Below are positions 6,100 through 35,785 of a stretch of 64,000 bases of DNA, piece after piece; the first letter of the stretch is position 1; each line of letters starts with the position of its first letter. Location: NCBI GenBank assembly GCA_003154195.1, contig PMCS01000005.1:9449-73448 (forward strand), written 5' to 3'. The stretch comes from Candidatus Omnitrophota bacterium. GTDB lineage: Bacteria; Omnitrophota; Gorgyraeia; Duberdicusellales; 4484-171. Position numbers and translations under genes: made by a program. The notes under the pieces were generated by a model. It was given only the letters and a program-made list of their open reading frames with translations. It was not told the DNA's origin and searched no databases.

Positions 6100-6275
6100 A
6101 GGCTATGGCAAAGATGCCTGTATGGGTTAGGGCTTAGGTCATGGCTGTAAATTCGTATCAGCCTTAACCATTACCTTAACCCAAACCGGCTTTCCGCCTT
6201 CGCTAAAGCTTCGGCGAGACTTCTCCGAAGCTCGAAGAGCGAAGGAGAGCCTAGCCCTAACCTTAACCGATTTTA
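6100..6275. repeat. Palindromic intergenic repeat element, family 1 (GGGTTAGGG arms, central GTAAATTCGTATCAGCC), copy 1
   Basis: Shares atgcctgtatgggttagggc...ggctgtaaattcgtatcagcc...acccaaaccggctt with the copies at 23895, 26289, 27545, 29520 and 35620. Confidence 0.7.
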
Positions 6276-6866
6276 TTATTTCTGTTTATTCAACGCGTCG
6301 ATTATTTTCAATGCCAAGCTTTCCGCGGCGCGCGATAATGCTTCCCGGCCGCCGCTGATAAGGTCCGGATGGGCGGAATTTCCCGCGGCATCAAGGTAAG
6401 CGATAACCTTGCCGTCCTTAGCGCGAATAAGTTTGGCGGTAATATTTCCATAGCACGATTTCATATTCGACTGCGGAACATTGCCGCCGCTGGAAGCGAT
6501 TGCCTTGCCTAATATAACATAATCGGCGCCGGAGGAATTGCCTAATTGCGCCGATTCGCCCTGAGAAATATCCACCACGCGAAACGCCGGCTTCTGCTTG
6601 ATGACTTTCTCCGCGACAGAAGTATCGATAACATCATACCCCTCTTCAATCAGTTTTGTGGCGATTGCCGCCTCGGTCGTCGAAAGGTCAATCTCACTGG
6701 CCCACCACGCTTTCTGCGGGCCTTCGATATTCTGTTCGGCGATAAGTAAAATTACCTTAGGCTTTGCCGCAACAGGTTCCGCGCTGGTAACATTCTGGGA
6801 AAACACCGCGCCGCCGGTTAACGCAAACAAAAACAACAGTGTCCAAAAGAAAATATTTTTTTTCAT
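6276..6866 (-). CDS. Secreted hypothetical protein (signal peptide), encoded directly upstream of the CsgG-like gene
   Basis: Its position just upstream of the CsgG-like gene suggests a partner role, which is inference. N-terminal MKKNIFFWTLLFLFALTGGAVFS signal. No recognisable catalytic motif. Confidence 0.4.
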   Translation of the reverse strand: MKKNIFFWTLLFLFALTGGAVFSQNVTSAEPVAAKPKVILLIAEQNIEGPQKAWWASEIDLSTTEAAIATKLIEEGYDVIDTSVAEKVIKQKPAFRVVDISQGESAQLGNSSGADYVILGKAIASSGGNVPQSNMKSCYGNITAKLIRAKDGKVIAYLDAAGNSAHPDLISGGREALSRAAESLALKIIDALNKQK

Positions 6867-7148
6867 GGCTGCTCCTTTTGTAAAAAAATTCCTTACAGCG
6901 GCTATCCCCGCAGCAAGACTGCGGGGCGTTACGCCGCTCGTATGCCGCTTCGCGGCACCGGAATTTTTTTACATTCCATTCTCGTTCATCCCCAGGCCAG
7001 GTCAAAAACGGTTAGTTGTTTACAATGACCGTTGTCGCTTCACGCCGACCGCCAACTCATCCCTGCGACAAGACCTAAAGACGAGACATTGGCGGAAAAA
7101 CTTAAACCCCCTTCGCCGATATTTCAGGGTAATACACTAACGTCAACT

Positions 7149-7526
7149 TCAGCCGGCGACCATGATCAACTCTTTTATCTTATCCAGCAAAAGCTGAGGC
7201 TCAAACGGCTTAATAATATACGCGTCAGCCCCGACTTTTTGGCTGAATTTTATATCATCTTCCTGTGAACGCCCGGAAAAAATAATCACCGGAATGTTCT
7301 TAAAGCGCCGGTCTTTTTTAAGCAAGCCGCAAACCCAAAACCCGTCCATTTTGGGCAACATCAAATCCAAAAGAATTAAATCGGGCTTATCCTCCTTGGC
7401 TTTCCTGAGCGCGTCTTCCCCATCGTAAGCCGTCACAACCTCATACTGCTCCGCTTCCAAACGAAGCCGCACGATCCGAACCAACGACTCTTCATCGTCG
7501 ACCACTAATATTTTTTTCCTGTCCAT
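7149..7526 (-). CDS. Single-domain response regulator (CheY-like receiver)
   Basis: ILVVDDEESL...LLDLMLPKMDG...IIFSG...ADAYIIKPF matches receiver-domain signature residues. Confidence 0.8.
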   Translation of the reverse strand: MDRKKILVVDDEESLVRIVRLRLEAEQYEVVTAYDGEDALRKAKEDKPDLILLDLMLPKMDGFWVCGLLKKDRRFKNIPVIIFSGRSQEDDIKFSQKVGADAYIIKPFEPQLLLDKIKELIMVAG

Positions 7527-7529
7527 TCT

Positions 7530-7700
7530 GCGCCTTCGGCTCGCCTCTCGGCCCGTCTCGCTCGCCTCACGGCGAAGCCGTGGGCCGAAGGCTTGCCGAG
7601 GCGGACGCTCGCCTCTCGGCGAAGTGAGGGAAGCCGAGGGCTTGAAAATGAGTAAGTCTCAAACCCCTTCGCTAACGCTTCAGGGGTAATTCGCGCTATT
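7530..7700. repeat. GC-rich nested-palindrome repeat (ctcgcctctcggcgaag / gccgaggc units), related copy at 16925-16990
   Basis: Direct repetition of tcgctcgcctc(a/t)cggcgaag with paired gccgaggc segments. A similar block is at 16925-16990. Confidence 0.45.
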
Positions 7701-7741
7701 ATTTTTTCGTCATGAGTACACTAGAAAAAATAATGCGCTCA

Positions 7742-9172
7742 TTAAAAAAAACGGGCACCTTTTCGGTCACTTTCGTCTTCTTTAAGTACCTGCAAAAACG
7801 CGTCGACGACTTTTGGGTCAAACTGCTGGCCACTGCCTTTAACCAATTCCGCCATCGCCGCCTCCCGGCTCATTGCCGGCCGATAGGCGCGCGCGCTGGT
7901 CATCGCGTCATAAGCGTCGGCCACGGAAACAACCGCAGCAAAAATATGAATACCGGTACCACTTAACTTATCGGGGTAACCGGAGCCGTCGAAACGCTCG
8001 TGATGGCCCCGGATAATCGCCAGCACCTCTTCGGTAAGCTGAATCGGTTTTAAAATTTCTTCGCCGATAACCGGGTGCTCCCTGATTTTTTTCCACTCCT
8101 CATCGGTAAGCCGCCCGGTCTTATTCAGGATATTTTCGGCCACGGCGAGTTTACCGATATCATGCAAATACGCCGCGTCGCGCAATAACTCGATTTTTTC
8201 CAGAGGAAAACCCATGCGCGCGGCGATTTGAACGGCGTATTCGGCAACACGCTCCGAATGTCCGCAGGTATAAGAATCTTTGGCTTCTAAAATACGAATC
8301 AGCGATTTAATGGCATTATAGAAATAATTGTTGAGCTTGACGCGGGAACTATGAAGGCTCTCTGCCATGCGATTGAAAGAATCCGCCAGGAGGCTTAATT
8401 CGTCATCGCCGGAGATTTTAACCCGGTACTGTAAATTATCTTTAGCGATATTCTCGGTGCCTTTAACTAATTCTTCGATGGGCTTGGTGATACTGCGCGA
8501 TACCAATGTCCCCAGAAACAACGAGAAGATAACCCCGAAAAGTAACACCAGCGTAGCGCGCCCCTGAATTTCTTCCTGGGCCAAATAAACATCGCCGGCC
8601 ATAAGGTCGACTCCCAGAATAGCCGCGGCAGTTCCTTTTTTGTCGCGGATAGGAGCGTATCCGGAAACAAGCTTGCCCCACCGGTCTTCGCCTATTTTCT
8701 TATCCGCCGTCGGCCCGTTAAAAGCACGCATCATCTCGGGAAAATTCGACGGGTTATATTCATCTCCGGGGTATGAGGCCAAACCGTTATTGCCGGGTTC
8801 GCGGGATACCGGTTCAGAATCCACAATATAACATAACCGGCCGGGCCTGACGGCCCTGCTCATAATGTAGATACGGCGTATCGGCGGATTGGCGTTTTTG
8901 ATCGCGTTTATCTGTCCGGATATTTTTTTATATTCCGAAGAATTTACCGCCTCTTTATTCAGCTTGATCTGCGCCAGCATTTCGGCATCAATCGTCAAGG
9001 CCGCCGTTTGCGCGATAATCCGCAGATTATCCCGAAATTGCGCGAACTGAGAATTAAGCGAGTAGCGGTAAATGAGATAATCGCTTAAGGCCCCGGCGCA
9101 GAGCATCGCCACGATAAACACAAAGGCGATTTTCATGCGGAAAGTACTCAAGAATAATCCGGCTTTTTTCAT
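7742..9172 (-). CDS. HD-GYP domain c-di-GMP phosphodiesterase-type sensor protein with N-terminal TM, extracytoplasmic sensor region and HAMP
   Basis: HD...HDIGK...GYP motifs (CGHSERVAEYA...LHDIGKLAV...RFDGSGYPDKL). N-terminal TM MKIAFVFIVAMLCAGAL and a second TM before a HAMP-like linker. Confidence 0.8.
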   Translation of the reverse strand: MKKAGLFLSTFRMKIAFVFIVAMLCAGALSDYLIYRYSLNSQFAQFRDNLRIIAQTAALTIDAEMLAQIKLNKEAVNSSEYKKISGQINAIKNANPPIRRIYIMSRAVRPGRLCYIVDSEPVSREPGNNGLASYPGDEYNPSNFPEMMRAFNGPTADKKIGEDRWGKLVSGYAPIRDKKGTAAAILGVDLMAGDVYLAQEEIQGRATLVLLFGVIFSLFLGTLVSRSITKPIEELVKGTENIAKDNLQYRVKISGDDELSLLADSFNRMAESLHSSRVKLNNYFYNAIKSLIRILEAKDSYTCGHSERVAEYAVQIAARMGFPLEKIELLRDAAYLHDIGKLAVAENILNKTGRLTDEEWKKIREHPVIGEEILKPIQLTEEVLAIIRGHHERFDGSGYPDKLSGTGIHIFAAVVSVADAYDAMTSARAYRPAMSREAAMAELVKGSGQQFDPKVVDAFLQVLKEDESDRKGARFF

Positions 9173-9193
9173 GATTTTGCGGTTTACAAGGCG

Positions 9194-9754
9194 TCACTTC
9201 TGTTTCCAGACTTTGCCCTCTTTTTTTTGAACTTCAAACCAGCAGCCGGCCTTGGCTCTCTGATAATGGTCGATATAAAAAAATTGCTGCGCTCCCTCTA
9301 CCGCTATTTTATTATTTTCGGCGGTGGCTTTATAGATAATCTCGCGATCCCGGTTTTCCGCCTCAACCGCTTGCGTAACTTTTCCCTTGAAATCGTCGGG
9401 CACGCCATCCCTTACCTGCAAAAAAGCGTCAAGCTTTTCACCGACATAACCCTTGACGGAATAATCTTCTATCTCCGGCGCCCTGGCCTTGCGGTGCGCA
9501 ATCGCTTCGTCGACGGCGGCAACCGGCGTTTCCTGAGCATAAGCTTCCGGAACGATTACCTTCAATAAAGAGTTAAGCTGCTTTTCTTTTTTTCCGTAAA
9601 TCCGGTCTTCAATGGACGAGGCTTCTTTCTCCACATGCTGATAAATATCGATACGCATCGTCACATCTACCTTAATCGGCTTAGTCGCCTCGACGCTGAG
9701 TTTCGCGCAGCCTAATACCGCCGCTACCATTGCAATAATCACCAGCTTTTTCAT
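9194..9754 (-). CDS. YdbL-like periplasmic lipoprotein (DUF1318 family)
   Basis: MKKLVIIAMVAAVLGC lipobox. The C-terminal EAENRDREIIYKATAENNKIAVEGAQQF...AKAGCWFEVQKKEGKVWKQK resembles the DUF1318/YdbL signature. Confidence 0.5.
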   Translation of the reverse strand: MKKLVIIAMVAAVLGCAKLSVEATKPIKVDVTMRIDIYQHVEKEASSIEDRIYGKKEKQLNSLLKVIVPEAYAQETPVAAVDEAIAHRKARAPEIEDYSVKGYVGEKLDAFLQVRDGVPDDFKGKVTQAVEAENRDREIIYKATAENNKIAVEGAQQFFYIDHYQRAKAGCWFEVQKKEGKVWKQK

Positions 9755-9900
9755 AGTTAACCTCCCTATCTTACCGTAAAGCCGTAGGATGCCCGCAGCC
9801 TTCGGCTGCTTGGACGTAGGACGCAATAATGATCAAGAACGTTCCTCAAACCCCTCGTCCTTACATCCCAGCGAAGAGAACGTCCCACGTCCTACGGTAT

Positions 9901-11046
9901 TTAGTCACCGCCCGCCCGATGCACCGGAACGTCGATGTCCCGCCTTCCCTGCGCGAAAGAATCGAAAACAATCCGTGTTACCATCTCGTCATTAACCATA
10001 GTAATTTTTATGATTCCACTATTATATGCATAATTTTTAAAACCGTCAATCAGCGTATTGTATTGTGTCTCATTCAACCCGCGGCGTAAAAAACCCAGCG
10101 AATCATCTTTTTTTATATCGATAAACCCCCCGCCGATATTGCTGAAAACCGCTCCCAAGCTGCTGATTTTTCCGTCCGCAATGAATAGATTAAGGCCGGC
10201 GTCAAAAAGCCCATCAGCCCGAAAATCACCTTTGTCCACAAGAATGCCGACCACGCTGTCTAATGACATATCTTTAAGGTTAAGCCCAACCGCGATATCG
10301 CGATAACCGGAAAAAATAATCGCTCCAAAAATTTCCGCCCGGGGGCCGAAGAAGATATTCTGCGCGTCAACTAATATAATATTGCTTCCTTCGATTTTCA
10401 AAGGAACCGTTAACCCTTCGATGCTTCTTTTACCGATTTTTGCCCCGTCAATTTTTAAACTATACAGACCGCCGCCGCAAGGCAAAAGGCTCAAGCGGTT
10501 GATGATTAAATCACGGGAGGAAAAATTAAAATAATCAATCCGCGCGGCCGATATGCCGATTATCCTTTTATCGTCGACTAAACATTTCAAAAATAAAGCG
10601 GCGGCGAACTCCGCCTCGGTTCCGGTATATTTTATTTGTATATTTTTTAGTTCAAGGGGCAGAGGAAAAATATTGAAGCCGGTATTAACTTTAGCGGAAT
10701 TGGTAAATTTAGCGGCTAATCTGCGTTTAAGCCGCGCGGGATTTTTTACGGTAATTTTTGCGCCATCAATACCGACGGCGCTGATTGCCGGAGGAAAAAT
10801 ATTAAAATTTACGCTAAACCTTGATAAAATAACTTCGATATCTTCATCGATAAAACTTAAATTAACCAGGGCCGCGCCCGCCCCTGAAATCTTGGCGGCT
10901 TCGACACGACATTTTCCCCCAAACTCATTTTCGACGAAACCCGTGATATATTTTTTTAACGCCGTTTCTTTATAAAAAAATACAAATACCGCGGACAAGA
11001 CCGCAACCGCCAAAACGATATATCCAATTCTACGCACGCGTTTCAC
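9901..11046 (-). CDS. Membrane-anchored AsmA/YdbH-like protein (putative)
   Basis: N-terminal TM, beta-rich repetitive body, sited immediately upstream of the YdbL-like gene as in ydbH-ydbL arrangements. Weak assignment. Confidence 0.3.
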   Translation of the reverse strand: MKRVRRIGYIVLAVAVLSAVFVFFYKETALKKYITGFVENEFGGKCRVEAAKISGAGAALVNLSFIDEDIEVILSRFSVNFNIFPPAISAVGIDGAKITVKNPARLKRRLAAKFTNSAKVNTGFNIFPLPLELKNIQIKYTGTEAEFAAALFLKCLVDDKRIIGISAARIDYFNFSSRDLIINRLSLLPCGGGLYSLKIDGAKIGKRSIEGLTVPLKIEGSNIILVDAQNIFFGPRAEIFGAIIFSGYRDIAVGLNLKDMSLDSVVGILVDKGDFRADGLFDAGLNLFIADGKISSLGAVFSNIGGGFIDIKKDDSLGFLRRGLNETQYNTLIDGFKNYAYNSGIIKITMVNDEMVTRIVFDSFAQGRRDIDVPVHRAGGD

Positions 11047-11055
11047 GGGGTATGA

Positions 11056-11565
11056 TTAAAGTGAATTACCACCGACTGAAGCCGGATGATTTTCTTTGTT
11101 TTCGATATATTTCACGAAAACAACAAGGTCGTCGCCGTCTTCGTAAAAATCTTTTATCCTGCCCGCCTCCTTAAAATCCTGTTTGAGGTAAAAATTACGC
11201 GCGGCGGAATAGTCGACCCTCGACGACGTTTCAACCCGTAAAATTGCCTTGGGATATTTAGCGGACAAAAAATCCTGCACTTTCGTTATTAATCTTTTGC
11301 CCATGCTCCGGCGCTGGAAATGCCGGTCCACCACAAGCCAATAGATATCCCAGGCAAACTCGGTCATGGGAGTTCTGCCAAAAATGACAAACCCGACCAC
11401 GCGGTCGCCGTCTTTTTCTTCAAAAATGCGGTAAGTGGTACCGGGATTGCCGCGATAATCCTCGACGACTTCGTTTAAGGTATCGATTTCAACCGATTTG
11501 AAAACTTCAGAGTTTCTGGCGATAGTCAGATAGATATCGCCGACGGTCAATTCTTGTTCGTACAT
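11056..11565 (-). CDS. GNAT family N-acetyltransferase
   Basis: WLVVDRHFQRRSMGKRLI...LRVETSSRVDYSAARNFYLKQDF resembles the GNAT acetyl-CoA binding motif region. Confidence 0.75.
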   Translation of the reverse strand: MYEQELTVGDIYLTIARNSEVFKSVEIDTLNEVVEDYRGNPGTTYRIFEEKDGDRVVGFVIFGRTPMTEFAWDIYWLVVDRHFQRRSMGKRLITKVQDFLSAKYPKAILRVETSSRVDYSAARNFYLKQDFKEAGRIKDFYEDGDDLVVFVKYIENKENHPASVGGNSL

Positions 11566-11709
11566 AGCCCCTCCTGAATATCATTGCATTTCTTTACGCA
11601 GTAAACCCCGTTAGAGAACTCCGTTCTCTAACGGTCTGCGCTGACAGTGGCATTAGACCACCGTCAGCTTTATCGCTGGACAACCGCCGCCTAAAGTCGG
11701 CGGCTTTCT

Positions 11710-14150: not shown

Positions 14151-14174
14151 AATGTTTCGATCAAATATAATTTT

Positions 14175-15437: not shown

Positions 15438-15484
15438 AATAAAAAAGCGCTGACTGTATCCTCGTCGGCACAATCAGCGCTTTG
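15438..15484 (-). terminator. Putative rho-independent terminator downstream of kamA-like gene
   Basis: Hairpin aaagcgctgactg...caatcagcgcttt, followed by TTTTTTATT on the minus strand. Further hairpins lie at 15545-15598. Confidence 0.45.
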
Positions 15485-16763: not shown

Positions 16764-17082
16764 TTAGCTATCATCCTCCTTTATTTTTTACTTCATAAAC
16801 AATAAAACATTTTATCCGCTTCGCGGATAATAAAATGGCATGCCGATTAAAAAATATTTTTGAATAACCGATTGTTTTTTCTTTTCTCTTGATCATCCGC
16901 CTAACCGGAAAAATTGCTGCCTGCTCGCAGCGCTCAGTCCGTCTCGCTCGCCTCTCGGCGAAGCTGATGGCCTTCGCCTTGCCGAGGCTGACGCGAATCA
17001 AAACGAACCGTTAGCGCAGGCGTGACATATTTTTTCGGTTAGGGTGATTTTTATTTTTTGCTTCGCAAAAAATATAAAGCTA

Positions 17083-17613: not shown

Positions 17614-17633
17614 AACTCCTCCTTTTTTAAAAT

Positions 17634-18129: not shown

Positions 18130-18245
18130 CCTCCTGTCAAATATTTTTTAATGAGACTTCGCCGAAATCAAGCCCAAAGGGCACAGATTGAGGCGGTAGT
18201 CGAATTACCCTGAGCGACCGAAGGGAGTCGAAGGGTAATGAGCTT
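18130..18245. repeat. Intergenic repeat element, family 2 (modules TAATTCGACTACCGCCTC and CGAAGTCTCATTA), reverse-orientation copy
   Basis: Contains aatgagacttcg and gaggcggtagtcgaatta, the reverse complements of modules seen at 41515-41671 and 62860-62990. Confidence 0.55.
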
Positions 18246-19305: not shown

Positions 19306-19429
19306 GAAAATACTTATTTTCGGTATGAAATTTTTTACGCGGCAAAAAATAAATATCAGGTAAGATTCTGCGAGTTGGCGCTAAAAAAATAGTTATCCGA
19401 CAATTGGTTACACCCTGCCGCCAAACTTA

Positions 19430-21944: not shown

Positions 21945-22265
21945 GGTTTTATTTTTGTAACGAGAGGGGAAACCGGTAAATTTCGCTATCTCGCGGCTTT
22001 TACTTTCTGCTTAAAACATTATAGCAAAATATAAGCGTCAAGGGAAAGGAAAACATAAAATATTTAAGCGCACTTTAAAAAACTATTTGCGGGGGCAAGT
22101 ATTTATGCTATAATTCTTTCGGTTTTCATATTTATTTTTGCTGCGCAGAAAATAAATATTGTCCGCTTCGCGGATAAAAAATAATAAGACTAACCCGGAA
22201 AATTTTCGCCTTTGCCTAAAAAAACCGGGACTATTAATTTAAATTGTTCTTAAAGTTGAAACTAT

Positions 22266-23294: not shown

Positions 23295-23891
23295 TCACAC
23301 AAGCCTTCTCTCCACCAGCGCTTTGCCCAGAGTCACCGAATCGATATACTCGATCTGCGTGCCCAGGGGAATGCCGATGGCGATGCGATAAATTTTAACT
23401 TTATACGGCGAAATCTTCTCAATCAAGTACTGCGCGGTCAATTCGCCTTCATTATCGGGATCGGTAGAGATGATGACTTCGCTGACCTCGCCTTTTTCTA
23501 AACGGCTGATCAACTTCCCGAGATTAAGCTCTTCGCCGTAGACTCCCTCTAAAGGAGAGATGCGGCCAAGTAAAACATAATAAATACCGTTATAGGAAGA
23601 AGTTTTTTCGATTGCCATGATATCTTTCGGTTCTTCGACAATGCATACCACGTCTTTATCGCGCTTAACATCGGCGCAGATATGGCAGGCATCGCCGCTT
23701 GAAAAATTATTGCATATACGGCACGGCTTAATATGATTATGTAATTCTTCCATTTTTACCGCCAGATCCTTGACCTGCGACAGCGGCATCTTCAATAGAT
23801 AATAGGCCATCCTCTCGGCGCTGCGCCTGCCCACGCCGGGGAATTTCGTAAAGGCATTGACTAAATCGGTAAAAGCTTTGTTAAAACTCAT
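23295..23891 (-). CDS. recR: Recombination protein RecR
   Basis: Zinc finger CRICNNFSSGDACHIC, Toprim VVCIVEEPKD...STDPDNEGE, C-terminal Walker-B-like region. Confidence 0.9.
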   Translation of the reverse strand: MSFNKAFTDLVNAFTKFPGVGRRSAERMAYYLLKMPLSQVKDLAVKMEELHNHIKPCRICNNFSSGDACHICADVKRDKDVVCIVEEPKDIMAIEKTSSYNGIYYVLLGRISPLEGVYGEELNLGKLISRLEKGEVSEVIISTDPDNEGELTAQYLIEKISPYKVKIYRIAIGIPLGTQIEYIDSVTLGKALVERRLV

Positions 23892-23894
23892 GTT

Positions 23895-24025
23895 GTTAAA
23901 CTGGGTTAGGGTAAAGATGAGGAAGCCAGTATGGGTTATGGCTAAGGTTAAGGCTGAAAATTTGTATCAGCCATGGCCCTTGCCCTTACCCAAACCGGCC
24001 GCTTAACCCTGGCCATAGCCTAATC
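23895..24025. repeat. Palindromic intergenic repeat element family 1, copy 2
   Basis: ctgggttagggtaaagatgaggaagccagtatgggttatggctaaggttaaggctgaaaatttgtatcagcc...acccaaaccggccgcttaaccctggcc. Confidence 0.7.
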
Positions 24026-25780: not shown

Positions 25781-25979
25781 ATATTTTTTTGCTCCGCAAA
25801 AAAAATATCCGTTATCCGCTTCGCGGATGAAAAACAAAATTCCGGTATTTCTTGCGCAATATTTTGCTTAACCGGATAAACCAAAATTCTGGGGATAATC
25901 CAATTAAAAGTTTTTATTGTTTTATTGCTTCCCTCTCCCTTCATCATTCGGTCTTCGGTCATCGGTTATTCTAATGCGG

Positions 25980-26288
25980 CTACATCGACCGCAGCCTCAT
26001 CGCCCAATCAAATAAAGTCCGGATTAAAAAATCTTTTAAAAACCAAATCGCTAAAAACGCGATTATCGGCGATATGTCAATACCCATCTTAAGGCTAAAG
26101 GGCAGAATCCGCCTTATCGGTTCCAGAATCGGCTCCGTCACCTGGTATAAGAATTTTACGATTGGATTGTACGGATCAGGACTGACCCAGCTCAGCAGGG
26201 CGCGGATTAGAATAATCCAGTAGAATACCGTTAATACCGTGTTTAGTATACTCGCCAGCGCTGAGATGAAATTTGCCAAAATAAACAT
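25980..26288 (-). CDS. YggT family membrane protein
   Basis: ~100 aa with two TM segments. YWIILIRALLSWVSPDPYNPI matches YGGT-family signature. Confidence 0.65.
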   Translation of the reverse strand: MFILANFISALASILNTVLTVFYWIILIRALLSWVSPDPYNPIVKFLYQVTEPILEPIRRILPFSLKMGIDISPIIAFLAIWFLKDFLIRTLFDWAMRLRSM

Positions 26289-26425: not shown

Positions 26426-26427
26426 TA

Positions 26428-27333
26428 TCAGGAACTCTGCCGGTACAACTTATAAACCGCATAAGAAATATAAGCGATGAACTTTTTTGCTTTCCCATAG
26501 TTTCTTACGTCTTTGGTCAAAACGCAGATGATAAAATCTCCCCGGCCGGAAAAAATAATCCCGGCGTCATGGACAACCCCCCGCTCCAGGCCGGTTTTAT
26601 GCGCCACGATAACTCCGTAAGGCAGATAACGCGGGATGCGGTCTTTCATCGTTTGTCTTTTTAACAGCGCGAGCATAAACATGGAAGACTTCTTATCGAT
26701 AAGGTTAAAACTATAAATCTTTTCTAAAAGAGATGCTATCTCGTAAGTCGTGGTAAAATTATCGAACCCTTTTTTTCTTTGAGAAAAGTCCATCATCGGA
26801 CGGACAAGCGCCGTTTTATTTAACCCCAACCCCTTAAAGACGCCGTTGATGTAATCGTAGCCTAAAATATCGATGACTTTGTTAGCCGCGGTATTATCGC
26901 TCTCGGTAATCATCAAATATAGTAATTTCTTGAAGGTTATGCTGATGGGAAGGCGCAGGCGCTTAAGCAAACCGGAACCGCCGGCGATATCACCCCGGCG
27001 GATGACTATCACGTCATTCAGCTTTACCTTGCCTTCCCTGACTGCGTTCATGCTGACGGCCAGAATGGGAAGTTTTATTAAACTCGCCGCGGGAAATAAT
27101 TCATTATCGTTATGGACTACTTCCAAAGACGGCCGTCTCAAGTCCCGGATTACAATCGAATAATTGCCGCGGAAACGGCGGGAAAGATAAGACAATTGGA
27201 CCCTTAAGCGCTGGTATAGCTTCGCGCTCTGGCCATAAGAAGATGCTTCGGCGGCCTTAAAATAAATCCCGCCGGCAAGCGAAACAATCAAGAGCGAAAC
27301 AAGCGGAATAAAAATATATCGTCTTTTCATCAT
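26428..27333 (-). CDS. Class A beta-lactamase-like serine hydrolase (secreted)
   Basis: Signal peptide. SxxK (ASLIK), SDN (ITESDNTAAN) and KTG (HKTGLER) motifs in canonical order. Confidence 0.65.
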   Translation of the reverse strand: MMKRRYIFIPLVSLLIVSLAGGIYFKAAEASSYGQSAKLYQRLRVQLSYLSRRFRGNYSIVIRDLRRPSLEVVHNDNELFPAASLIKLPILAVSMNAVREGKVKLNDVIVIRRGDIAGGSGLLKRLRLPISITFKKLLYLMITESDNTAANKVIDILGYDYINGVFKGLGLNKTALVRPMMDFSQRKKGFDNFTTTYEIASLLEKIYSFNLIDKKSSMFMLALLKRQTMKDRIPRYLPYGVIVAHKTGLERGVVHDAGIIFSGRGDFIICVLTKDVRNYGKAKKFIAYISYAVYKLYRQSS

Positions 27334-27544
27334 TAGAGATCTTTATACGGCTCTTTCAATACCTTTATCACACAAAAAAGACAAAGGCCGACGATTAAAC
27401 CCCAGGAAAAAATTAAAAATATCCAACCAGAAATGGTCATATTATTAAAAACTAGTGCACTGTCAAATTAATTTTTACTGGTATCACTTCAGGAAAAATT
27501 AATTTCTACATGCACTTGTACCGCGCACCACTATTAAAAATTAA

Positions 27545-27712
27545 GTTGACGCGGTGCTAGGTTAGGGCAATGGTAAAGAAGCCTGTATAGACTATGGCCA
27601 AGTAAAGGCTAAAAAATTGTTTTAAGCCCTTACCTTTACTCATACCGGCTTCCTCACCCTAACCTTAACCGATTACTATTACCGGCTTCCTAACCCTGAC
27701 CTTAGCCTCTTA
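27545..27712. repeat. Palindromic intergenic repeat element family 1, divergent copy 4
   Basis: ggttagggcaatggtaaagaagcctgtatagactatggcc...accggcttcctcaccctaaccttaacc...accggcttcctaaccctgacc. Confidence 0.55.
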
Positions 27713-29228: not shown

Positions 29229-29519
29229 AATAAATATTTTTGCTTTGCAAAAATATTTATCTGGCAAAAAATGCTTTTCCCTAACGCATTTTTTGGGATA
29301 ATTTAGTATATCACCTATCGGTTTTTTATACAATATTTTTTGCGGTAGATTTAAGGAAGGGCTGAAAATATTTGGAAGAAAAATACTCTCATGACGCCGC
29401 CCCAGTTCGAAAAGAACGCTGAAAGCGCTCTTTTCGAACTCGCAGGGGAGGCAGTATCAATGAACCGCCATGGGAGAAATACAAAACTAAGGTTATGAAG
29501 ACGATATTGAAATCGGCTA

Positions 29520-29722
29520 AGGATAGGGTTAGGAAGCCGGTTTGATAAATACTGGGCTAAGGTAAGGGTTACGAGGCCGGTTTGGGCTAAGGTTATGGTT
29601 CGGGTTTAAATCAATATTTTTAGCCCTTGCCTTAACCCTAACCCATACTGGCATCATGGCCCTTGCCCTAACCGTTTTTTAATCCATACCGGCATCGTAA
29701 CCCTTACCTTAACCCGGTATTT
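29520..29722. repeat. Palindromic intergenic repeat element family 1, compound/inverted copy 5
   Basis: Contains arms in both orientations (gggttaggaagccggtttg and gcccttgccttaaccctaacccatactggcatcatggcccttgccctaacc). Confidence 0.6.
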
Positions 29723-29723
29723 A

Positions 29724-31640
29724 CTACTCGTTCTTTTTGCCGGTTTTTCGCACAACCGCGATTACCACAATCAACAACACGACGAACACAACCAATCCGA
29801 TGCCGGATAAAATTATCGCGGGTATGGCGTTGACCGCGCTGCCCAGCATATTGGCGAACATCTCGATCATTCGTTCTCTGGCCTTGTGCAGGTTTTCGCG
29901 CCACAACGCCTTCCATTCTGGGACATACAAATCGAGCGAGATACTGGCGCTGCCGGTAAGGTTCTTACCAGCCAAATCCAACGCCGGGTCTTTCGAATCA
30001 ACGCTGAACCCTTTCACACTGCCTATTTTTTTAAGCGCCGCAATAGCCTCCTCCGCTTTATTCAACGGCACGCGCAAAGCGACTTGCGCGTAATTGCTCG
30101 ACGCCGACTCCTGATTAAACCCACCGGAAATAATTCGGCCGGATTTTTCTTTCGCTAATCCGGCTACCGTGTCGTAAGCTTTTTGCAGGTCGTCGATTTC
30201 TATCTTCAGGTAAGCGCCGTATTTAGCCGCCGGCGCGAATAAATCGACGGTTACCGTGGACATGCTGATAAGGTTGTCCAGTTCCGCCATCCGCGCCTTG
30301 AACATTTCCATCCTGCGCTCATAAGGGGTGAGTTCATTTTCTACGCGGATCGCCTCATCGACGCTATTGGACTTATTTTCGTATTTCTTGCGCAGTTTGT
30401 CGTAAACAACTTTAGTAAGATTAAATTCGGAAAGCAAATTCTTGTACTCTTTAGAGACGTCGCTGCTCTGGAGGTCAAATCCTTTCACACTGCCTAATTT
30501 CTTGATCTCCTCAAGCGCTTCTTCGAGTTTGTTTTTAGGGATACGTAAAATTAATTTCGCCGCTATCTTCGCGGTCAAGCCTTCATCTGTTTTTTCTTCG
30601 CGAAAATTGGCCTGCGCCAGATAGCCGCCTTTAGCTTTAGAAATTTTAGCGGTTTCGCCATAGGCGCTTTGGACATCCGGAACCTCCACGCTGACATTGG
30701 CATTACGGATAACATATTCTTCCTGGCCGGTCGCCGGTAAAGTTATGTCCTGGATAATAATCGGGCCGGTTTCGCCTTCTGCTGCCTGTTCCGCCACAGC
30801 CATGGGGACGATTTTATCGGCAAGCATCCGCTGGGAAAGCTGCATCGCCGAAGCCTTACCGGCAGACTCCCCTATCCAGCCCAATGTTTCCGCTTCCACG
30901 GATGAAGCAGTGCCGGATGCATGATTAAAAAACTTCTCTTCGTGGTCGCCGTGGTACATAGTCTTGCCGTACTGCTGGTCATATATAGGTTTCGCGGAAC
31001 CGACTATTACATTAGCTTTCCCGCTTGCCGCCAGGGCATTGTGCCCGCCACGGGCAAAAAAACTCTTCATGCCCTCTGAAAAACCGGCATCTGAACTCAT
31101 ACCCGTGCTATTCCCAACGTGTGCCTCCCACAAAGCGGAAAGGGCTTTTACATTATTGGATAAAGTTCTCTCTAGGTCCGCGCGATACTCTTGATTGTTG
31201 AAATCGGAGTTGGGCACGGACGTAACCTTTTTGGCGGCTGACAGGCTAAATTCCTCTCCCATCCTGTCCGATGAATCCTTCAGCCGGCCTTGAAACCCGG
31301 CTTTAACAAACACCTGTCCCACCAAAACAAAAATTATAATAGTCGCTAATGCTCCTGAACCGATCCCTACGCCGATCAGTGTTTTCTTATTCATCTTCGA
31401 CACCCCCTTGTATTTTTCGCCCAAAAAATCCGTTCGGATTTTTTGTTCTAAGTCAGGAGTCAACTCCTGCTCTGGCCATTGTTTGAGAACGGACGATAAT
31501 TTTCCTAAATCTCCCAGGTATTTTTTACAACTCTCACAGGTTTGAAGATGTTTTTCAACAAACTCTCTTTCCCGGGGCGAGAGTTCATTGTCCATGTACG
31601 CGCTGATCAATCTTTTTATTCTAAAATGGATAAACATCAT
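29724..31640 (-). CDS. Anti-sigma factor (zf-HC2 type) with single TM, two extracytoplasmic DUF4349-like repeats, and a C-terminal TM anchor
   Basis: N-terminal ISAYMDNELSPREREFVEKHLQTCESCKK (HxxxCxxC) and TM LIGVGIGSGALATIIIFVLVG. Two repeats with KxGxVKGF...DVSKEY...L pattern, and a C-terminal hydrophobic helix. The start overlaps the sigma-factor stop. Confidence 0.6.
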   Translation of the reverse strand: MMFIHFRIKRLISAYMDNELSPREREFVEKHLQTCESCKKYLGDLGKLSSVLKQWPEQELTPDLEQKIRTDFLGEKYKGVSKMNKKTLIGVGIGSGALATIIIFVLVGQVFVKAGFQGRLKDSSDRMGEEFSLSAAKKVTSVPNSDFNNQEYRADLERTLSNNVKALSALWEAHVGNSTGMSSDAGFSEGMKSFFARGGHNALAASGKANVIVGSAKPIYDQQYGKTMYHGDHEEKFFNHASGTASSVEAETLGWIGESAGKASAMQLSQRMLADKIVPMAVAEQAAEGETGPIIIQDITLPATGQEEYVIRNANVSVEVPDVQSAYGETAKISKAKGGYLAQANFREEKTDEGLTAKIAAKLILRIPKNKLEEALEEIKKLGSVKGFDLQSSDVSKEYKNLLSEFNLTKVVYDKLRKKYENKSNSVDEAIRVENELTPYERRMEMFKARMAELDNLISMSTVTVDLFAPAAKYGAYLKIEIDDLQKAYDTVAGLAKEKSGRIISGGFNQESASSNYAQVALRVPLNKAEEAIAALKKIGSVKGFSVDSKDPALDLAGKNLTGSASISLDLYVPEWKALWRENLHKARERMIEMFANMLGSAVNAIPAIILSGIGLVVFVVLLIVVIAVVRKTGKKNE

Positions 31641-32272
31641 CTCAACTCTCCCATCACCAGCATCAGTTCTTTTCTTAATTTTTCGCGGCCGCGAAAAATT
31701 AATACTTTCACCTTTGCCAGCGAACAATTTAAAATACCGGCGATTTCTTCATAGTTCAACTGCTGGTATTCCCTTAAGATTACCGCCTCGCGATATTCAT
31801 AGGGGAGTTTTTCTATCGCCTTCTTGACGATCGCGGCGCGCTCGTTATCCTGCGCTTCCGCGTCAGGGGAATATTTAGTATCCGGTATCTCCAGCTCTTC
31901 ATATTCACTGTCTTCCGCTTCTTTTTTAAACCACAAAAAAACGATTTTCCGGCGTTTCCGTATCCGGTCGACGCAGGAATTATGAGCAATCGTATACAGC
32001 CAGGTAGAAAATTTCGCTCTTACTTCATATTTATCCTTTTGCGCCGTTACGGCGTAAAACGCCTCGCCCACCACGTCTTCGGCGTCGGCAAGATTGCCCA
32101 ACAGCCTTAACGCGTAGTTTAAGAGGCGCTTTTTATAGCGTTGGAAGAGTTCTTCCAAAGCGTCAATATTTCCCATCCGATAGTCGGTCATAAGTTCTTC
32201 GTCCGGTTTGGTCATATTGTTTGAGTTTTCGCGATTTCTTTCTTCCATAAGATTAAACGCGCGAAGCGCCAA
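31637..32272 (-). CDS. ECF-type RNA polymerase sigma-70 family factor
   Basis: Region 2 (YALRLLGNLADAEDVVGEAFYAV...FSTWLYTIAHNSCVDRIR) and region 4 (EAVILREYQQLNYEEIAGILNCSLAKVKVLIFRGREKLR). Confidence 0.8.
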   Translation of the reverse strand: MALRAFNLMEERNRENSNNMTKPDEELMTDYRMGNIDALEELFQRYKKRLLNYALRLLGNLADAEDVVGEAFYAVTAQKDKYEVRAKFSTWLYTIAHNSCVDRIRKRRKIVFLWFKKEAEDSEYEELEIPDTKYSPDAEAQDNERAAIVKKAIEKLPYEYREAVILREYQQLNYEEIAGILNCSLAKVKVLIFRGREKLRKELMLVMGELR

Positions 32273-32603
32273 AAAGTTACACTTTTTTTACTACAAAGAC
32301 GCTAAGATTATAAATACATACCTGCATTTTAAATTGCTCATTGAACATTGGTTATTTTAAATTTTTTAAAAAGAAAAACAAATTAATACAGGGAAAATGG
32401 AAGACCGAGAAGAAAAGCTTAAAACCCAAACCTTACCACAAAGGCACCAAGCGCACGAAAAGAAAGCACAAATTCATCAAAAATGTTAATCTTAGTGGAC
32501 TTAGTGTCTTGGTGGTAAGGTTTTACGGTTTTAATCTTTTTTGTGCCTTGGTGGTAAATCTTTTGGTTTTTCTTTAATAGAATTATCCGCCCAATGGGTA
32601 GTT

Positions 32604-33035
32604 CTATTTTTTAATCCCTTTAATCAAGGTGTCAATCTCGGATTGGGAAAGGATGCGGTCGCCGGAAAAACGGGCAAGCAGGTCTTTTACGGGAAATACC
32701 TTTATTTTTTCGCCGTTTTGTATCGTTTTAAGCTCCTGGGGCAAAGATAAGACCGCGCCCAGATAAATCATCGAGGAGGGAACCGGCCCGAACTCGAACG
32801 ATTCATAAAAGATATAAAATCGGTTATGGGTAAGCGAATAAGCCACATCGCCCGCGGCCACGCTGTGCATCGCCGGCCCGCCCAGGGATGTTTGCGCGGG
32901 GGCAGCGAAAAAAACCGAGCGATCCCCCTGATTCAATACCGTCTCAATCGGCAATAGCGCGGCGACTTTTGTCCCCACGGCGCCGGAAAACCGCGCCTGG
33001 AAACTGACATGCGGGGTTTCGAAAGTAATATCCAT
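32604..33035 (-). CDS. Hypothetical protein (likely start at internal MDITFETPHV)
   Basis: ORF only. The N-terminal extension in the track reads through the intergenic palindrome. No recognisable motif. Confidence 0.3.
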   Translation of the reverse strand: MDITFETPHVSFQARFSGAVGTKVAALLPIETVLNQGDRSVFFAAPAQTSLGGPAMHSVAAGDVAYSLTHNRFYIFYESFEFGPVPSSMIYLGAVLSLPQELKTIQNGEKIKVFPVKDLLARFSGDRILSQSEIDTLIKGIKK

Positions 33036-33039
33036 AGTG

Positions 33040-33185
33040 AAACGACCTAGGCTAATGGCTGAAAAAGGATATCGGGGCATCAGGAAACTAGGATTTGGGT
33101 ATTGGGGAAGCAGGGAATTAGGAAATATACCCAATATCCCAGTTTCCTGATATCCAAATCCCGATATCCCGGTATCCTAATGCCC
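33040..33185. repeat. GGATTTGGG-unit palindromic element
   Basis: aggaaactaggatttgggtattggg ... cccaatatcccagtttcct inverted repeat plus gatatccaaatcccgatatccc. The same ggatttggg units recur at 14040-14150. Confidence 0.5.
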
Positions 33186-33845
33186 TTATTTGTTACGGTC
33201 CTTAGCCCTGAACGTAAACTCCTCCATATCCCTAGGCAATCTGACCTTTAAATTAACTTCGTCATGGCTCACCGGATGGACAAATTGCAAGAAACAAGCA
33301 TGCAGGGCGAGCCGCCGGAATTTAACGGCAAAATCTTTGCCGAACGCGTATTGTCGTTCGCCCAAAATAGGATTGCCTAACCCCGCCAGCTGTATCCTTA
33401 ACTGGTTTGTCCTTCCCGTAAAAGGAATCAGCTCCACAATACTGTACTCCGGAAAATCACGCAATACCTTATAATAGGTTTTCGCTAATTTAGGTTTTTC
33501 GCCGAACCGGCTGCCTTCGTTATCGATAATTTTCCCCTCGATAAACCCGCGATACTTACGCATTCTTCCGCGGACAAAAGCGATATATTTTTTCTTGATT
33601 ATACCGTCGCGAAACTGGTTCATAATTTTTTCCTGGACCTCGGGGCTTTTAGCGTAGATGATTAAACCGGTAGTCTCACGGTCAAGGCGATGGCAGGGAT
33701 AGACCTTTTCCCTAAGCCGTTCCTGCAAAAGCGAGGTCAAGGTATTCCTTTCGCCTTTCGGTGACGGCTCGACCAGAAGTTTGGCGATCTTGTTTACCAC
33801 CACCACGTACTCGTCGTTAAAAACAATGTCGAAAGGATTGTCCAT
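33186..33845 (-). CDS. RluA-family pseudouridine synthase
   Basis: HRLDRETTGLIIYAK catalytic Asp motif, and VVVNKIAKLLVEPSPK N-terminal region. Confidence 0.8.
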   Translation of the reverse strand: MDNPFDIVFNDEYVVVVNKIAKLLVEPSPKGERNTLTSLLQERLREKVYPCHRLDRETTGLIIYAKSPEVQEKIMNQFRDGIIKKKYIAFVRGRMRKYRGFIEGKIIDNEGSRFGEKPKLAKTYYKVLRDFPEYSIVELIPFTGRTNQLRIQLAGLGNPILGERQYAFGKDFAVKFRRLALHACFLQFVHPVSHDEVNLKVRLPRDMEEFTFRAKDRNK

Positions 33846-33960
33846 AAAATAGATAGACAGATGTCAGATGGTCAGATATCAGATGGTCAGATATCAGATG
33901 GTCAGATGCCAGGCAAACAGACAGTAGAGCGCATCTTGTTTCTTATCTGTCTATCTGTTT
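33846..33960. repeat. Tandem CAGATGGTCAGATAT x3 plus inverted repeat atagatagacagat/atctgtctatct
   Basis: Seen directly. Reverse-complement related units (atctgatatctg) occur on the other side of the adjacent gene at 34340-34390. Confidence 0.6.
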
Positions 33961-34349
33961 ATCTGATTATGCCCTTCAAAAACTGAAACAATAAATTGAT
34001 AAAGCATTCTACTCAATTCGTCTATTGTATCCCTTAATTGCACATAAAGCAATTTGTCGCCTAACGATTTTGTTTCAAAAAGCAAATCCAAATGCTCCTT
34101 TGTCTCCTGGTTCGATGCATAAGAACGATGCAAATAATGCAAATATTCATTTTTATAATTCCTCAAAGCGAACCCTTCCACAATCTGTGCTGATACAGAT
34201 TTTGACGATCTTCTTATTTGAGAGCCTTCTTCATATAATTCGAATTGCGGTAGAGTTAAAGACATTTTGTGAATATCGACTGCCAACTTATGCGCTTTTC
34301 CATAGATCTTCAGATCTTCCAACTTCATGCATTTCACCTCCCATCCCAA
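33951..34349 (-). CDS. Four-helix-bundle protein (23S rRNA intervening-sequence protein family, TIGR02436-like)
   Basis: LKIYGKAHKLAVDIHKMSLTLPQFELYEEGSQIRRSSKSVSAQIVEGFA...EHLDLL matches the characteristic helix 1-2 pattern of this family. Confidence 0.65.
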   Translation of the reverse strand: MGWEVKCMKLEDLKIYGKAHKLAVDIHKMSLTLPQFELYEEGSQIRRSSKSVSAQIVEGFALRNYKNEYLHYLHRSYASNQETKEHLDLLFETKSLGDKLLYVQLRDTIDELSRMLYQFIVSVFEGHNQINR

Positions 34350-34390
34350 TCTGTCATCTGTTTATCTGATATCTGCCTATCTGATATCTG
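34340..34390. repeat. ATCTGATATCTG-unit repeat, inverted partner of 33846-33960 repeats
   Basis: catctgtttatctgatatctgcctatctgatatctg. Confidence 0.55.
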
Positions 34391-34774
34391 TTAATCCGCC
34401 GCCTTATTCTTTCTAATTATTATAAACAAACCGGCAAAGGCGCCGAAAGAATTAGCCGCCTGGTCGAGCAGTTCGAAACTCCGGTAAGGAAGAAAATACT
34501 GGATGCATTCGATCGCGAAACCGAAGAAAAAACAGTAAAAAAAGGTAAACCAACGGGGGTATTTTTTGTAACTTCTTAAACGGGTATTGACTAAAATAAA
34601 CGATAACAGAAAATACATCGCGAAATGGACGATTTTGTCGGCATTAGGAAAGGAAACGGCCTTAGGGGTATGGACGGGAATGACCGATACCGTAAAGATA
34701 AAACAACTGTAGATCGCTACGGTAATCCGGGAAAACAAATATGACATAAGCCAACCAAATTTTGCATTGAACAT
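34391..34774 (-). CDS. VanZ-like family membrane protein
   Basis: Four TM segments, KIVHFAMYFLLSFIL and FGFAIECIQYFLPYRSFELLD motifs. Confidence 0.6.
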   Translation of the reverse strand: MFNAKFGWLMSYLFSRITVAIYSCFIFTVSVIPVHTPKAVSFPNADKIVHFAMYFLLSFILVNTRLRSYKKYPRWFTFFYCFFFGFAIECIQYFLPYRSFELLDQAANSFGAFAGLFIIIRKNKAAD

Positions 34775-34863
34775 TTATCATTAGACAATGATCATTGGAA
34801 AATATTATTTTCCCTCATTTTAAAATGAAGATTGATCAATGTTAAATTTAAAATTGTTTCAAA

Positions 34864-35052
34864 TCAGGTCTTTTTATCGCCGCCAGCGCCGTAACGCGCC
34901 AGCGCTTTCCTTATCCGAGCAGGCACGCATAGACATCTAAGCTCATTTATCTCCTTAAGCCAGATAAGTTTATTTCTGGGAGAAATCAACATCCCCCGGC
35001 GAATTCTTTCCTCCCGGCTTTCCCAGCCAAAATCTATATTTTTTCCCTTCAT
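34864..35052 (-). CDS. Small hypothetical protein, translationally coupled to upstream nucleotidyltransferase-like gene
   Basis: 4-bp overlap with 35049-35549. Basic. No motif recognised. Confidence 0.3.
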   Translation of the reverse strand: MKGKNIDFGWESREERIRRGMLISPRNKLIWLKEINELRCLCVPARIRKALARYGAGGDKKT

Positions 35053-35549
35053 CTCTTACCTAACTTCTTAATTATTTTTAGTTCTTGCACATCAAGCAAA
35101 TCTTTCTCCCGGCCGGCAGCACGCTTCATCGCGATAAGCGCATCAATCGATGCCACCGGAATGCAACACTGCCCCGCTTCTATCTTCTTCGCGCCCCTTA
35201 ATACGGCGGTAAAACTTACCGGCGTATCCACGATAATATCAACTTCTTCATAACCGGCAGTATCTTTATAAAAATTAAACGCCTTCAAATTTTTCTCTTT
35301 TACCCAAGTATCCCTTATTTTTTTATCGGCAAAATCCAAAGGATTCACCGGCTGCTTAACATGATAACCTTTTTTTATTAATATTTTTATCGCTTTCTTC
35401 AGGTTATCCTCGTCCATCGCCAATAAAATATCTAAATCGCCGGTAGCCCGATAGCCGCCAAGCAGATTAAACGCCACGCCGCCGACCACGACAAACCTTA
35501 CCTTAGCCTTGTTGAACGCGCGCAGTATCGTTTGATAAATCATCGTCAA
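35049..35549 (-). CDS. Nucleotidyltransferase-fold protein (AbiEii/MNT-like)
   Basis: VVVGGVAFNLLGGYRATGDLDILL resembles the GG...S/T.D.D nucleotidyltransferase motif of DUF1814/AbiEii-like proteins. Confidence 0.4.
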   Translation of the reverse strand: MTMIYQTILRAFNKAKVRFVVVGGVAFNLLGGYRATGDLDILLAMDEDNLKKAIKILIKKGYHVKQPVNPLDFADKKIRDTWVKEKNLKAFNFYKDTAGYEEVDIIVDTPVSFTAVLRGAKKIEAGQCCIPVASIDALIAMKRAAGREKDLLDVQELKIIKKLGKR

Positions 35550-35619
35550 TCAGTATACCAAAAGCCGTTGCCTTGTCAAAATAAAAACCCCCGGCATTTA
35601 CGCCGGGGGATAATTAAAA

Positions 35620-35785
35620 CTTGGTTAGGGCAAGGGTAATGATGCCGGTATGGGCTAAAGACTTGGCTAGGCAAGGGCCATGATGCCAGTATGGGTTAGG
35701 GTTAGGGCTGTAAATTTGTATTAGCCCTGACCTTTGCCTTTACCCAAACGGGCTTCTTAACCCTGGCCTTTACCAATCTTTTTTC
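35620..35785. repeat. Palindromic intergenic repeat element family 1, copy 6 (with duplicated left arm)
   Basis: ggttagggcaagggtaatgatgccggtatgggctaaag + ggcaagggccatgatgccagtatgggttagggttagggctgtaaatttgtattagccctgacctttgcctttacccaaacgggcttcttaaccctggcc. Confidence 0.7.

Follow-up and report, generated by a model that had tools for sequence, protein, structure and literature searches.

How can a piece of DNA come to rest precisely in the gap from a gene's stop codon to the following start codon without harm to genes that are tightly coupled? The question is raised by a 64,000-nucleotide stretch (hereafter the window) of a Candidatus Omnitrophota genome (GenBank assembly GCA_003154195.1, contig PMCS01000005.1, positions 9,449 to 73,448), in which an initial annotation had noted six copies of a palindromic intergenic element. 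At the level of sequence, these copies form a dispersed, oriented, non-coding hairpin family whose arms are homologous to those of one clade of PF05635 genes, and comparison with relatives establishes in the same terms that the elements were inserted at gene junctions. The copies are probably, though by no means certainly, non-coding miniature relatives of cassettes that resemble the intervening sequences (IVSs) of rRNA and carry a PF05635/TIGR02436 gene for a four-helix-bundle protein, the '23S rRNA IVS protein' (IVP; Avd family).

Six hairpins between stop and start codons

The six copies can be aligned far outside their GGGTTAGGG runs. A profile built from them (nhmmer) scored 100-131 bits at exactly six loci and found nothing else above noise in the 64 kb, and a covariance model (CM), a check proposed in the initial annotation, recovered the identical six loci and no more, which upholds the view that these are six homologous copies. 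Refined boundaries, listed below, lie only a few bases from those first proposed. A repeat finder also grouped the copies (families D2, D3, D5 and D7; inverted pairs I1-I11), and a two-arm pattern (GTATGGGYTA-N30-60-CCYTNNCCCAAACSGGC) had five matches in the window against 0.00 expected in shuffles. Because the forward nhmmer score exceeds the reverse in every copy, by 30-65 bits, each copy has a defined orientation, which is plus for five and minus for copy 5 alone, as had been described. The density of about one per 10 kb first given holds as an average (6 per 64 kb), but all six copies are confined to 6-36 kb. The copies, and two features within or beside them, are as follows.

6088-6275, plus strand: copy 1, left-core-right; nhmmer 111.5 bits, CM 108 bits; folds at -82.7 kcal/mol on the minus strand
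6195-6249, no strand assigned: GC-rich nested hairpin of 55 nt within the copy 1 right arm, where the remaining copies show a gap in the alignment
23892-24022, plus strand: copy 2, simple left-core-right; nhmmer 125.4 bits
26289-26427, plus strand: copy 3, simple unit; nhmmer 130.6 bits, CM 144.7 bits
27553-27712, plus strand: copy 4, left-core-right-right, with the 37-nt right module duplicated (repeat D5)
29505-29726, minus strand: copy 5, inverted left-left-core-right-right; nhmmer 109.6 bits on the minus versus 77.5 on the plus strand; repeat pair I10
35588-35609, minus strand: intrinsic terminator, a 9-bp GC stem and a T-run, directly downstream of copy 6 on the transcribed strand
35611-35783, plus strand: copy 6, left-left-core-right (repeat D3)

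Outside the window, the two-arm pattern gave no match in 185,579 species-representative genomes, viral contigs had no match to the family, and plasmids and phages gave no blastn match. The two-arm pattern was found in seven metagenome stretches, one of which (L013) is window copy 6 while two others (L007 and L011) are one site, and the wider metagenome scan that the initial annotation had called for thereby adds five sites, all from peat metagenomes (L007, L008, L009, L010 and L012). The window RecR is encoded with 100% identity on peat metagenome contigs and in the metagenome-assembled genome (MAG) GCA_003154645.1, and the contigs that bear it match the window at 99.2-100% identity. Homologues of RecR and CsgG all belong to Candidatus Omnitrophota, the nearest at ~73% and ~87% identity, respectively. 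One NCBI MAG contig (L001) has 31 nt at 2160-2192 where the window has 191 nt (31700-31892) inside an extracytoplasmic function (ECF) sigma factor gene; its sigma open reading frame (ORF) is truncated and has no Pfam match, reflecting either a deletion or an assembly difference.

All 11 sites (six in the window, five in metagenomes) lie between co-directional genes, with the spacer filled by the element at most of them, and 10 of the 11 share one orientation relative to transcription (two-sided binomial p = 0.012). At these 10 the order on the transcribed strand is stop codon, reverse complement of the right module, core, reverse complement of the left module ending in ...CCCTAACCAAGTTTTTAA, and then the Shine-Dalgarno sequence (SD) and ATG or, for copies 2 and 3 and L009, the ATG directly at a distance of 7-8 nt. 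At five sites (copies 2 and 4, L007, L009 and L010) the first GGY-TAR hexamers of the element contain the end of the upstream ORF or have a base in common with it, and the element therefore supplies the stop codon. Every window copy begins 0-12 nt past a minus-strand stop codon or overlaps it, so that the placement directly 3' of such stops, already remarked on in the initial annotation, holds throughout. A complete ORF-less hairpin in a MAG labelled Planctomycetia (L019:1205-1322) separates two convergent genes whose stop codons both fall at its edges, and placement is therefore not limited to co-directional junctions.

The individual junctions show how closely the elements fit. Copy 1 fills the spacer between a GNA1162-like lipoprotein gene (stop 6276-6278) and a CsgG-family gene (SD/ATG 6070-6072), both assigned by Pfam, while copy 2 lies exactly between the dnaX stop TAG (24020-24022) and the recR ATG (23889-23891), the G of this TAG being the first base of the element. 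Copy 3 separates the stop of a class-A beta-lactamase-like gene (26428-26430) from the ATG of a YggT-like gene (26286-26288), and at copy 4 the outermost GGCTAA hexamer provides, as its TAA, the stop of an SNF-family transporter gene (27702-27704). Copy 5 (fold -97.9 kcal/mol, z about -10) directly follows the stop of an anti-sigma factor gene (29724-29726), and copy 6 follows the stop (35784-35786) of a 1213-aa ORF, ahead of the separate terminator listed above.

Insertion is seen at copies 2 and 1, because relatives have overlapping or abutting genes at both of these junctions. The dnaX and recR genes overlap (ATGA; CAATGA) in the relative L014 and are 2 nt apart in L017, with DnaX C-termini that align residue for residue, whereas in the window 128 nt of element stand between TAG and ATG. 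Similarly, a single nucleotide separates the lipoprotein gene from csgG in the relative L034, as against 203 nt in the window, most of this spacer being copy 1. Both junctions have also been hit by other arm types in relatives. At the dnaX-recR junction of L016, a PF05635 gene lies between inverted CGTATATAG-type repeats, and in L033, the closest CsgG relative (87% identity), a 232-nt spacer between the lipoprotein gene and csgG contains an ORF-less hairpin of ATCTGTG/CACAGAT repeats (L033:130-210), which is the weaker evidence of the two (z = -2.5).

A strain-variant contig (L002) follows the window at 99.9% identity as far as the exact left edge of copy 4 (L002:6337, window 27555), past which it runs into other genes (ribonucleotide reductase and His_Phos_1), the breakpoint coinciding with the element boundary. 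It was considered as an empty site for copy 4 and rejected, because the contig is rearranged, has another gene upstream and is of no use for defining exact termini.

In the simple unit, about 125 nt long (113-133 nt), a left and a right module flank a core hairpin; the largest compound copy measures 222 nt. The left module (~41 nt; AAAACTTGGTTAGGGTAAGGGTAATGATGCCAGTATGGGTTA) comprises three GGNNAN hexamers, a GAWGCC-N-GTATGGG box and three or four further hexamers; the core adds hexamers around a 9-13-nt loop; and the right module (~37 nt; TTACCCAAACCGGCTTCCTAACCCTAGCCTTAACCGA) is an imperfect reverse complement of the left, such that terminal inverted repeats are present and CCCAAACCGGC of the right module faces GCCNGTATGGG of the left. 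We write this arm type as GGNNAN/GCCNGTATGG. In an 11-copy alignment the invariant columns follow a strict 6-nt period (left GG..A., right.T..CC), interrupted by an invariant box between the hexamers (left G.GCC.GTAT.G versus right CA.AC.GGC). Either module can be tandemly duplicated, giving left-left-core-right in copy 6, where the 41-nt left module occurs twice, and in L008, left-core-right-right in copy 4, L007 and L010, and left-left-core-right-right in copy 5; the compound nature of copy 5 and the doubled left arm of copy 6 had both been recognised beforehand.

Each copy forms a long imperfect hairpin on either strand (minimum free energy -44 to -98 kcal/mol, z -4 to -11 versus shuffles), and the copies thus both align beyond short runs and fold, the two points on which the initial annotation had staked the family. 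No ORF occurs in the copies, and one frame contains in-frame TAA/TAG; a coding explanation of the GGY-WAN periodicity was rejected on these grounds. A G-quadruplex or telomere-like (TTAGGG) reading was also rejected: despite GGG in the window copies, the homologous arms in L026, L028 and L029 consist of GGTNAC hexamers with GG only, and quadruplex potential is therefore no feature of the family. In an Rfam scan of the window only a tRNA-Asn reached threshold, with no rRNA and no family for the elements, and a permissive scan gave only sub-threshold miRNA-precursor noise at the hairpins.

Arms shared with PF05635 cassettes

The link to a gene family emerged from the left arm. A pattern made of its invariant positions only (22 specified bases, for which we estimate ~0.07 chance hits) matched seven loci in the 185,579 species genomes, in MAGs whose records name them as Omnitrophota, Planctomycetia, Bacteroidales and a deltaproteobacterium. 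Two of these loci (L019 and L023) are complete hairpins without an ORF. At L020, by comparison, a 128-aa ORF comes immediately after the left arm, with the right arm beyond it, and the encoded protein belongs to PF05635 (3.4e-15) and TIGR02436 ('four helix bundle protein'), with weak matches to bAvd/DivGenRetAVD. L024 has a frameshifted homologue (~65% identity) enclosed by arms of this kind and starting right where an ABC ATPase gene has its stop codon.

Homologues of the L020 protein (2,567 proteins at E <= 1e-10) were then selected by protein identity alone, and the genomic contexts of four were examined (L026/L027/L036-L038, L028, L029-L032 and L035). All lie between co-directional genes, and the flanks of these genes (hereafter IVP genes) match the hidden Markov model (HMM) and CM derived from the window, for example at the upstream arm of L029 (E = 2e-5), the hairpin of L035 (47 bits), L036 (36 bits) and the solo arms of L026. 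ORF-less hairpins and solo arms were the only other matches to either model in the ~415 kb of fetched loci. When aligned, the window hairpins and the IVP-flanking arms have the same invariant GG..A. and GCC.GTAT.GG positions, and the GTAT/GTTT asymmetry between arms also occurs in the L029 cassette. A PF05635 ORF is thus enclosed by, or adjoins, homologous arms at L020, L024, L026, L028, L029 and L035, that is, at six or more independent ORF-bearing loci in other MAGs, all of the same IVP clade. Because the same arms flank PF05635 genes elsewhere, the window copies are read as ORF-less relatives of the IVS-like cassette.

The window also contains a PF05635 cassette of its own, with arms of another type.

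33851-34396, minus strand: PF05635 cassette, gene 33951-34349 (Pfam 3.7e-24); repeats D19, I12 and I15

This gene lies between inverted arrays of 7-8-nt CAGATNN repeats, unlike the arms of the six copies, and the cassette again takes up the whole stop-to-ATG interval, with a VanZ-like gene upstream and a pseudouridine synthase gene downstream. The encoded protein shares only 26% identity with the L020-type IVP. In all, three IVP clades were encountered with three types of arm, a small sample but one consistent with arms that co-vary with the protein. The ORF-less hairpin of L033 resembles the arm type of this cassette.

Some further features accompany the IVP cassettes of other contigs. Just upstream of the cassette in L026, a copy of the 3' end of a tRNA-like sequence lies ~100 nt beyond that sequence (L026:9633-9835), resembling the att-site duplication that results from integration. 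Omnitrophota contigs with IVP cassettes repeatedly contain small free-standing GIY-YIG genes of 90-105 aa (L016:7829-8101, L026:381-668 and L036:277-594), and in L016 there is in addition a Y1_Tnp gene whose tail is DnaA_C-like (10580-11578).

Other repeats in the window fall outside the family. The 55-nt hairpin in copy 1, which folds alone at -29.4 kcal/mol, lies outside the family consensus and is unrelated to it; two GC-rich nested hairpins in 5' leader or intergenic positions (7547-7608 and 16933-16994) are 82% identical to each other, and the hairpin in copy 1, being of similar GC-rich style, may belong with them to a second small repeat family. A small hairpin pair, TTATCCGCGAAGCGGATAA with the AT-rich ATATTTATTTTTTGCGCAGCAAAAAAATAAATAT, recurs upstream of minus-strand genes (5069-5095, 16781-16837, 17050-17080, 19331-19357, 22128-22184, 25781-25837 and 29237-29263) and may represent a common motif of promoter regions or terminators. 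A 42-nt perfect-type palindrome, TATCCAGCACTAATTTTGCCGCGGCAAAATTAGTGCTGGATA, is common with its flanks to 41521-41597, 62867-62943 and 18141-18215, and one of these loci adjoins an AbiEii-like nucleotidyltransferase gene (62976-63752); a second AbiEii-like gene lies at 35049-35549. About 1 kb at 3830-4836 is 72-80% identical to 38335-39302, in the 5' part of the 1213-aa ORF (35784-39425, no Pfam match), and as 3457-5334 has no ORF of at least 80 aa, the region may be a decayed paralogue of that ORF.

Origin, spread and function of the hairpins

If the copies are miniature relatives of PF05635 cassettes, they would be selfish elements whose self-contained stem may hold the stop and start codons close together and, by supplying the stop codon, may be tolerated at operon junctions. 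The stem would probably be cut by RNase III in the co-transcribed mRNA, by analogy with the stems of rRNA IVSs. The periodic invariant positions of the arms look like a recognition code, and we speculate that the invariant hexamers and box could be read by a cognate IVP protein supplied from another locus of the genome, which might also aid the spread of the hairpins with no known transposase taking part.

Several observations weigh against this reading. Neither the window nor five loci from the same population contained an L020-type IVP gene by tblastn, and a trans-acting partner in this genome is therefore an assumption only. In cassettes, the sense strands of IVP gene and host usually coincide, while the window hairpins mostly have the opposite orientation. 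The taxonomic labels of the MAGs with related elements come from record titles only. The direction of descent can run either way, with the ORF lost from a cassette or acquired by a hairpin. The bias in orientation may follow transcription or replication, which are inseparable here because the genes are nearly all co-oriented and GC skew follows them. Neither an unambiguous target-site duplication (TSD) nor exact termini could be defined at the copies; TA or TAA occurs near most ends, and no TSD is demonstrable because these bases belong to GGYTAR hexamers or AT-rich flanks.

The folding evidence points the same way. Compensatory changes, a check raised in the initial annotation, were counted on the 11-copy alignment over the full mirror structure (55 mirror positions) and did not exceed shuffles, the counts being lower than in the shuffles and pairing occupying 73.8% of cells against a shuffle mean of 75.2%. 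At the variable hexamer positions 4 and 6, a mismatch is present in 6-11 of the 11 copies, and an A-A (or U-U) mismatch in GTATGGG/CCCAAAC is conserved. Fold stability showed no strand preference (Wilcoxon p = 0.49), and G-U counts were mixed. As covariation above shuffles is absent, the hairpin is kept by sequence conservation with regularly spaced conserved mismatches. The hairpin is real, but nothing indicates selection on RNA structure; of the structural conservation first proposed, the hairpin itself stands, whereas its conserved folding stems from invariant sequence and compensatory change does not bear it out.

These results also bear on the possibility that the hairpins are cis-regulatory RNAs, selected by the host and recruited repeatedly as intercistronic stabilisers, attenuators, partial terminators or processing sites. 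In favour of such a role, the copies always occupy transcribed spacers directly after stops in a non-random orientation, a short U-run (AAGUUUUUAA) follows the hairpin in the mRNA sense, and roles of this kind are documented for ERIC, REP and Correia elements. However, beyond the lack of covariation and of strand asymmetry in folding, the flanking genes are functionally unrelated, relatives have overlapping genes at the same junctions without the element, and in other phyla the homologous arms accompany a gene that looks selfish. Termination as a general function, suggested in the initial annotation, is unlikely because copy 2 lies inside dnaX-recR, copy 6 needs a canonical terminator of its own, and a terminator scan flagged none of the elements; a promoter scan did not flag them either, the one weak -35/-10 match falling at the end of copy 3 only. 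A role as mRNA 3'-end stabiliser or processing site, the other function first proposed, is possible, but we regard host-selected regulation as an unlikely origin for the family.

The elements might instead be classical miniature inverted-repeat transposable elements (MITEs), that is, deletion derivatives of an insertion sequence (IS) moved in trans by a DDE or other transposase, with the IVP association secondary (for example as cargo). Small size, lack of coding capacity, multiple copies and inverted ends all suit such an origin, as do the TA or TAA beside many ends and the occurrence in MAGs labelled as several phyla, as expected of mobile DNA. Yet no transposase of any kind was recognised by Pfam among the 39 window ORFs, including the IS200/IS605 TnpA that the initial annotation had suggested looking for, and none was found among Pfam annotations or ORFs beside any fetched copy. 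No IS with these ends turned up in scans of genome collections (two), metagenomes (one) and viral contigs (one), a TSD is not demonstrable, as described above, and the ORF-bearing loci with these arms, at least six of them and independent, all carry the same IVP clade; an IS ancestry accordingly seems quite improbable. Still more doubtful, to the point of being very improbable, are repetitive extragenic palindromic (REP) elements or REPINs moved by a RAYT (Y1, IS200/IS605-like) acting on single-stranded hairpins at the replication fork. This mechanism would account for the 10 of 11 sites in one orientation, coinciding with leading/lagging strand polarity, and long hairpins of two inverted units do recall REPINs; a Y1_Tnp gene is also present in the related Omnitrophota contig L016. 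The arms, however, are hexamer arrays with no 20-40-nt REP units and no GTAG head, no PF01797 gene occurs in the 39 window ORFs, no copy or cassette adjoins a Y1 gene, and the Y1 gene of L016 lies ~6 kb from the IVP cassette and lacks such arms. Of the MITE- or REP-like character originally assigned, a dispersed non-coding repeat of MITE type in transcribed spacers is retained, whereas the link to REP, bacterial interspersed mosaic elements (BIMEs) and IS200/IS605 TnpA, there being no GTAG-headed units, is not.

Returning to the descent of the copies from, or alongside, PF05635 cassettes, a broader version can be offered tentatively. PF05635 genes with their arms may be widespread, cross-phylum mobile cassettes that home to the stop/start junctions of operons and to the loops of rRNA helices, where they would give rise to 23S IVSs; each clade would have arms of its own short tandem units, RNase III would neutralise the RNA, and the window copies would be non-autonomous forms amplified in trans. 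The findings suggest that rRNA IVSs are one corner of a larger family that colonises protein-gene junctions as well, in gene-bearing and miniature forms. If this broader version is true, the function of the S23p/IVP protein would be the mobility or upkeep of its own hairpin, which would explain the origin of rRNA IVSs. For annotation, the family accounts for 'spacers' of 130-220 nt in Omnitrophota operons and for the GGY-TAR ends of some ORFs.

Comparison with known systems

No paper on PF05635 cassettes outside rRNA or on such Omnitrophota repeats was found in the literature searched, although they may have been described elsewhere. Among palindromic repeats, ERIC and Correia elements are imperfect palindromes of ~100-160 bp in transcribed spacers and untranslated regions that are non-coding and form long RNA hairpins, and stabiliser-, attenuator- and processing-type roles have been documented for them and for REP elements. 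ERIC/IRU and Correia (NEMIS) elements thus share with the window copies a similar size, a palindromic form, and an intergenic, co-transcribed and non-coding nature. The window elements differ from them in that no TA duplication has been demonstrated, the partner gene is Avd-like rather than a transposase, the taxa are others, and the arms show strict 6-nt periodic conservation with regularly mismatched positions.

REP/BIME/REPIN structures are likewise intergenic hairpin doublets of inverted units, mosaic with duplicated modules and biased in orientation. REP units themselves measure 20-40 nt, carry a conserved GTAG head, occur as inverted doublets and have a RAYT partner (PMC3116915), whereas the window units are larger (~40 nt per arm plus the core), lack a GTAG unit, have no RAYT that we could find and are tied through their arms to PF05635. 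MITEs are matched in being short, non-coding and multi-copy with terminal inverted repeats, but not in having an autonomous partner that encodes a transposase, and the short GC stem with a U-tract at the end of a transcription unit that marks an intrinsic terminator is not a property of these elements.

On the protein side, Avd is the accessory protein of diversity-generating retroelements, a cofactor that binds nucleic acid and reverse transcriptase. The gene that travels with the arms is of the same fold and family (PF05635). However, gene tables list no reverse transcriptase, template or variable repeats near any cassette, and the window copies are geneless. The resemblance of PF05635 to Avd in fold has been noted before (PMC10053308).

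The closest parallel is provided by the IVSs of 23S rRNA, which have been known together with a conserved ORF since the early 1990s but whose origin, means of mobility and protein function still lack an accepted explanation (PMC4990558). These IVSs are selfish stem-loop insertions cut out by RNase III, some with this ORF and some without (PMC4990558). Like the window elements, 23S IVSs (with the S23p ORF in Leptospira/Coxiella, without an ORF in Salmonella/Yersinia/Campylobacter) are stem-loop insertions with complementary arms, have a PF05635 gene in full-length relatives alongside ORF-less short versions (PMC4990558), and insert where the transcript tolerates an extra hairpin. They differ in position, lying in rRNA helices 9, 25 or 45 whereas the window copies lie between protein-coding genes, from stop to next start, and the window elements additionally have arms of short tandem units with a conserved box and occur in multiple copies in one genome. 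IVSs are excised from the primary transcript by RNase III with no religation of the fragments, and the window elements are predicted substrates of this enzyme by analogy, and compared with IVSs that carry the S23p ORF the window copies lack an ORF, which places them in the group at the level of the wider family only. Taken together, the elements are best described as an IVS-like hairpin cassette family at protein-gene junctions, here in its ORF-less form.

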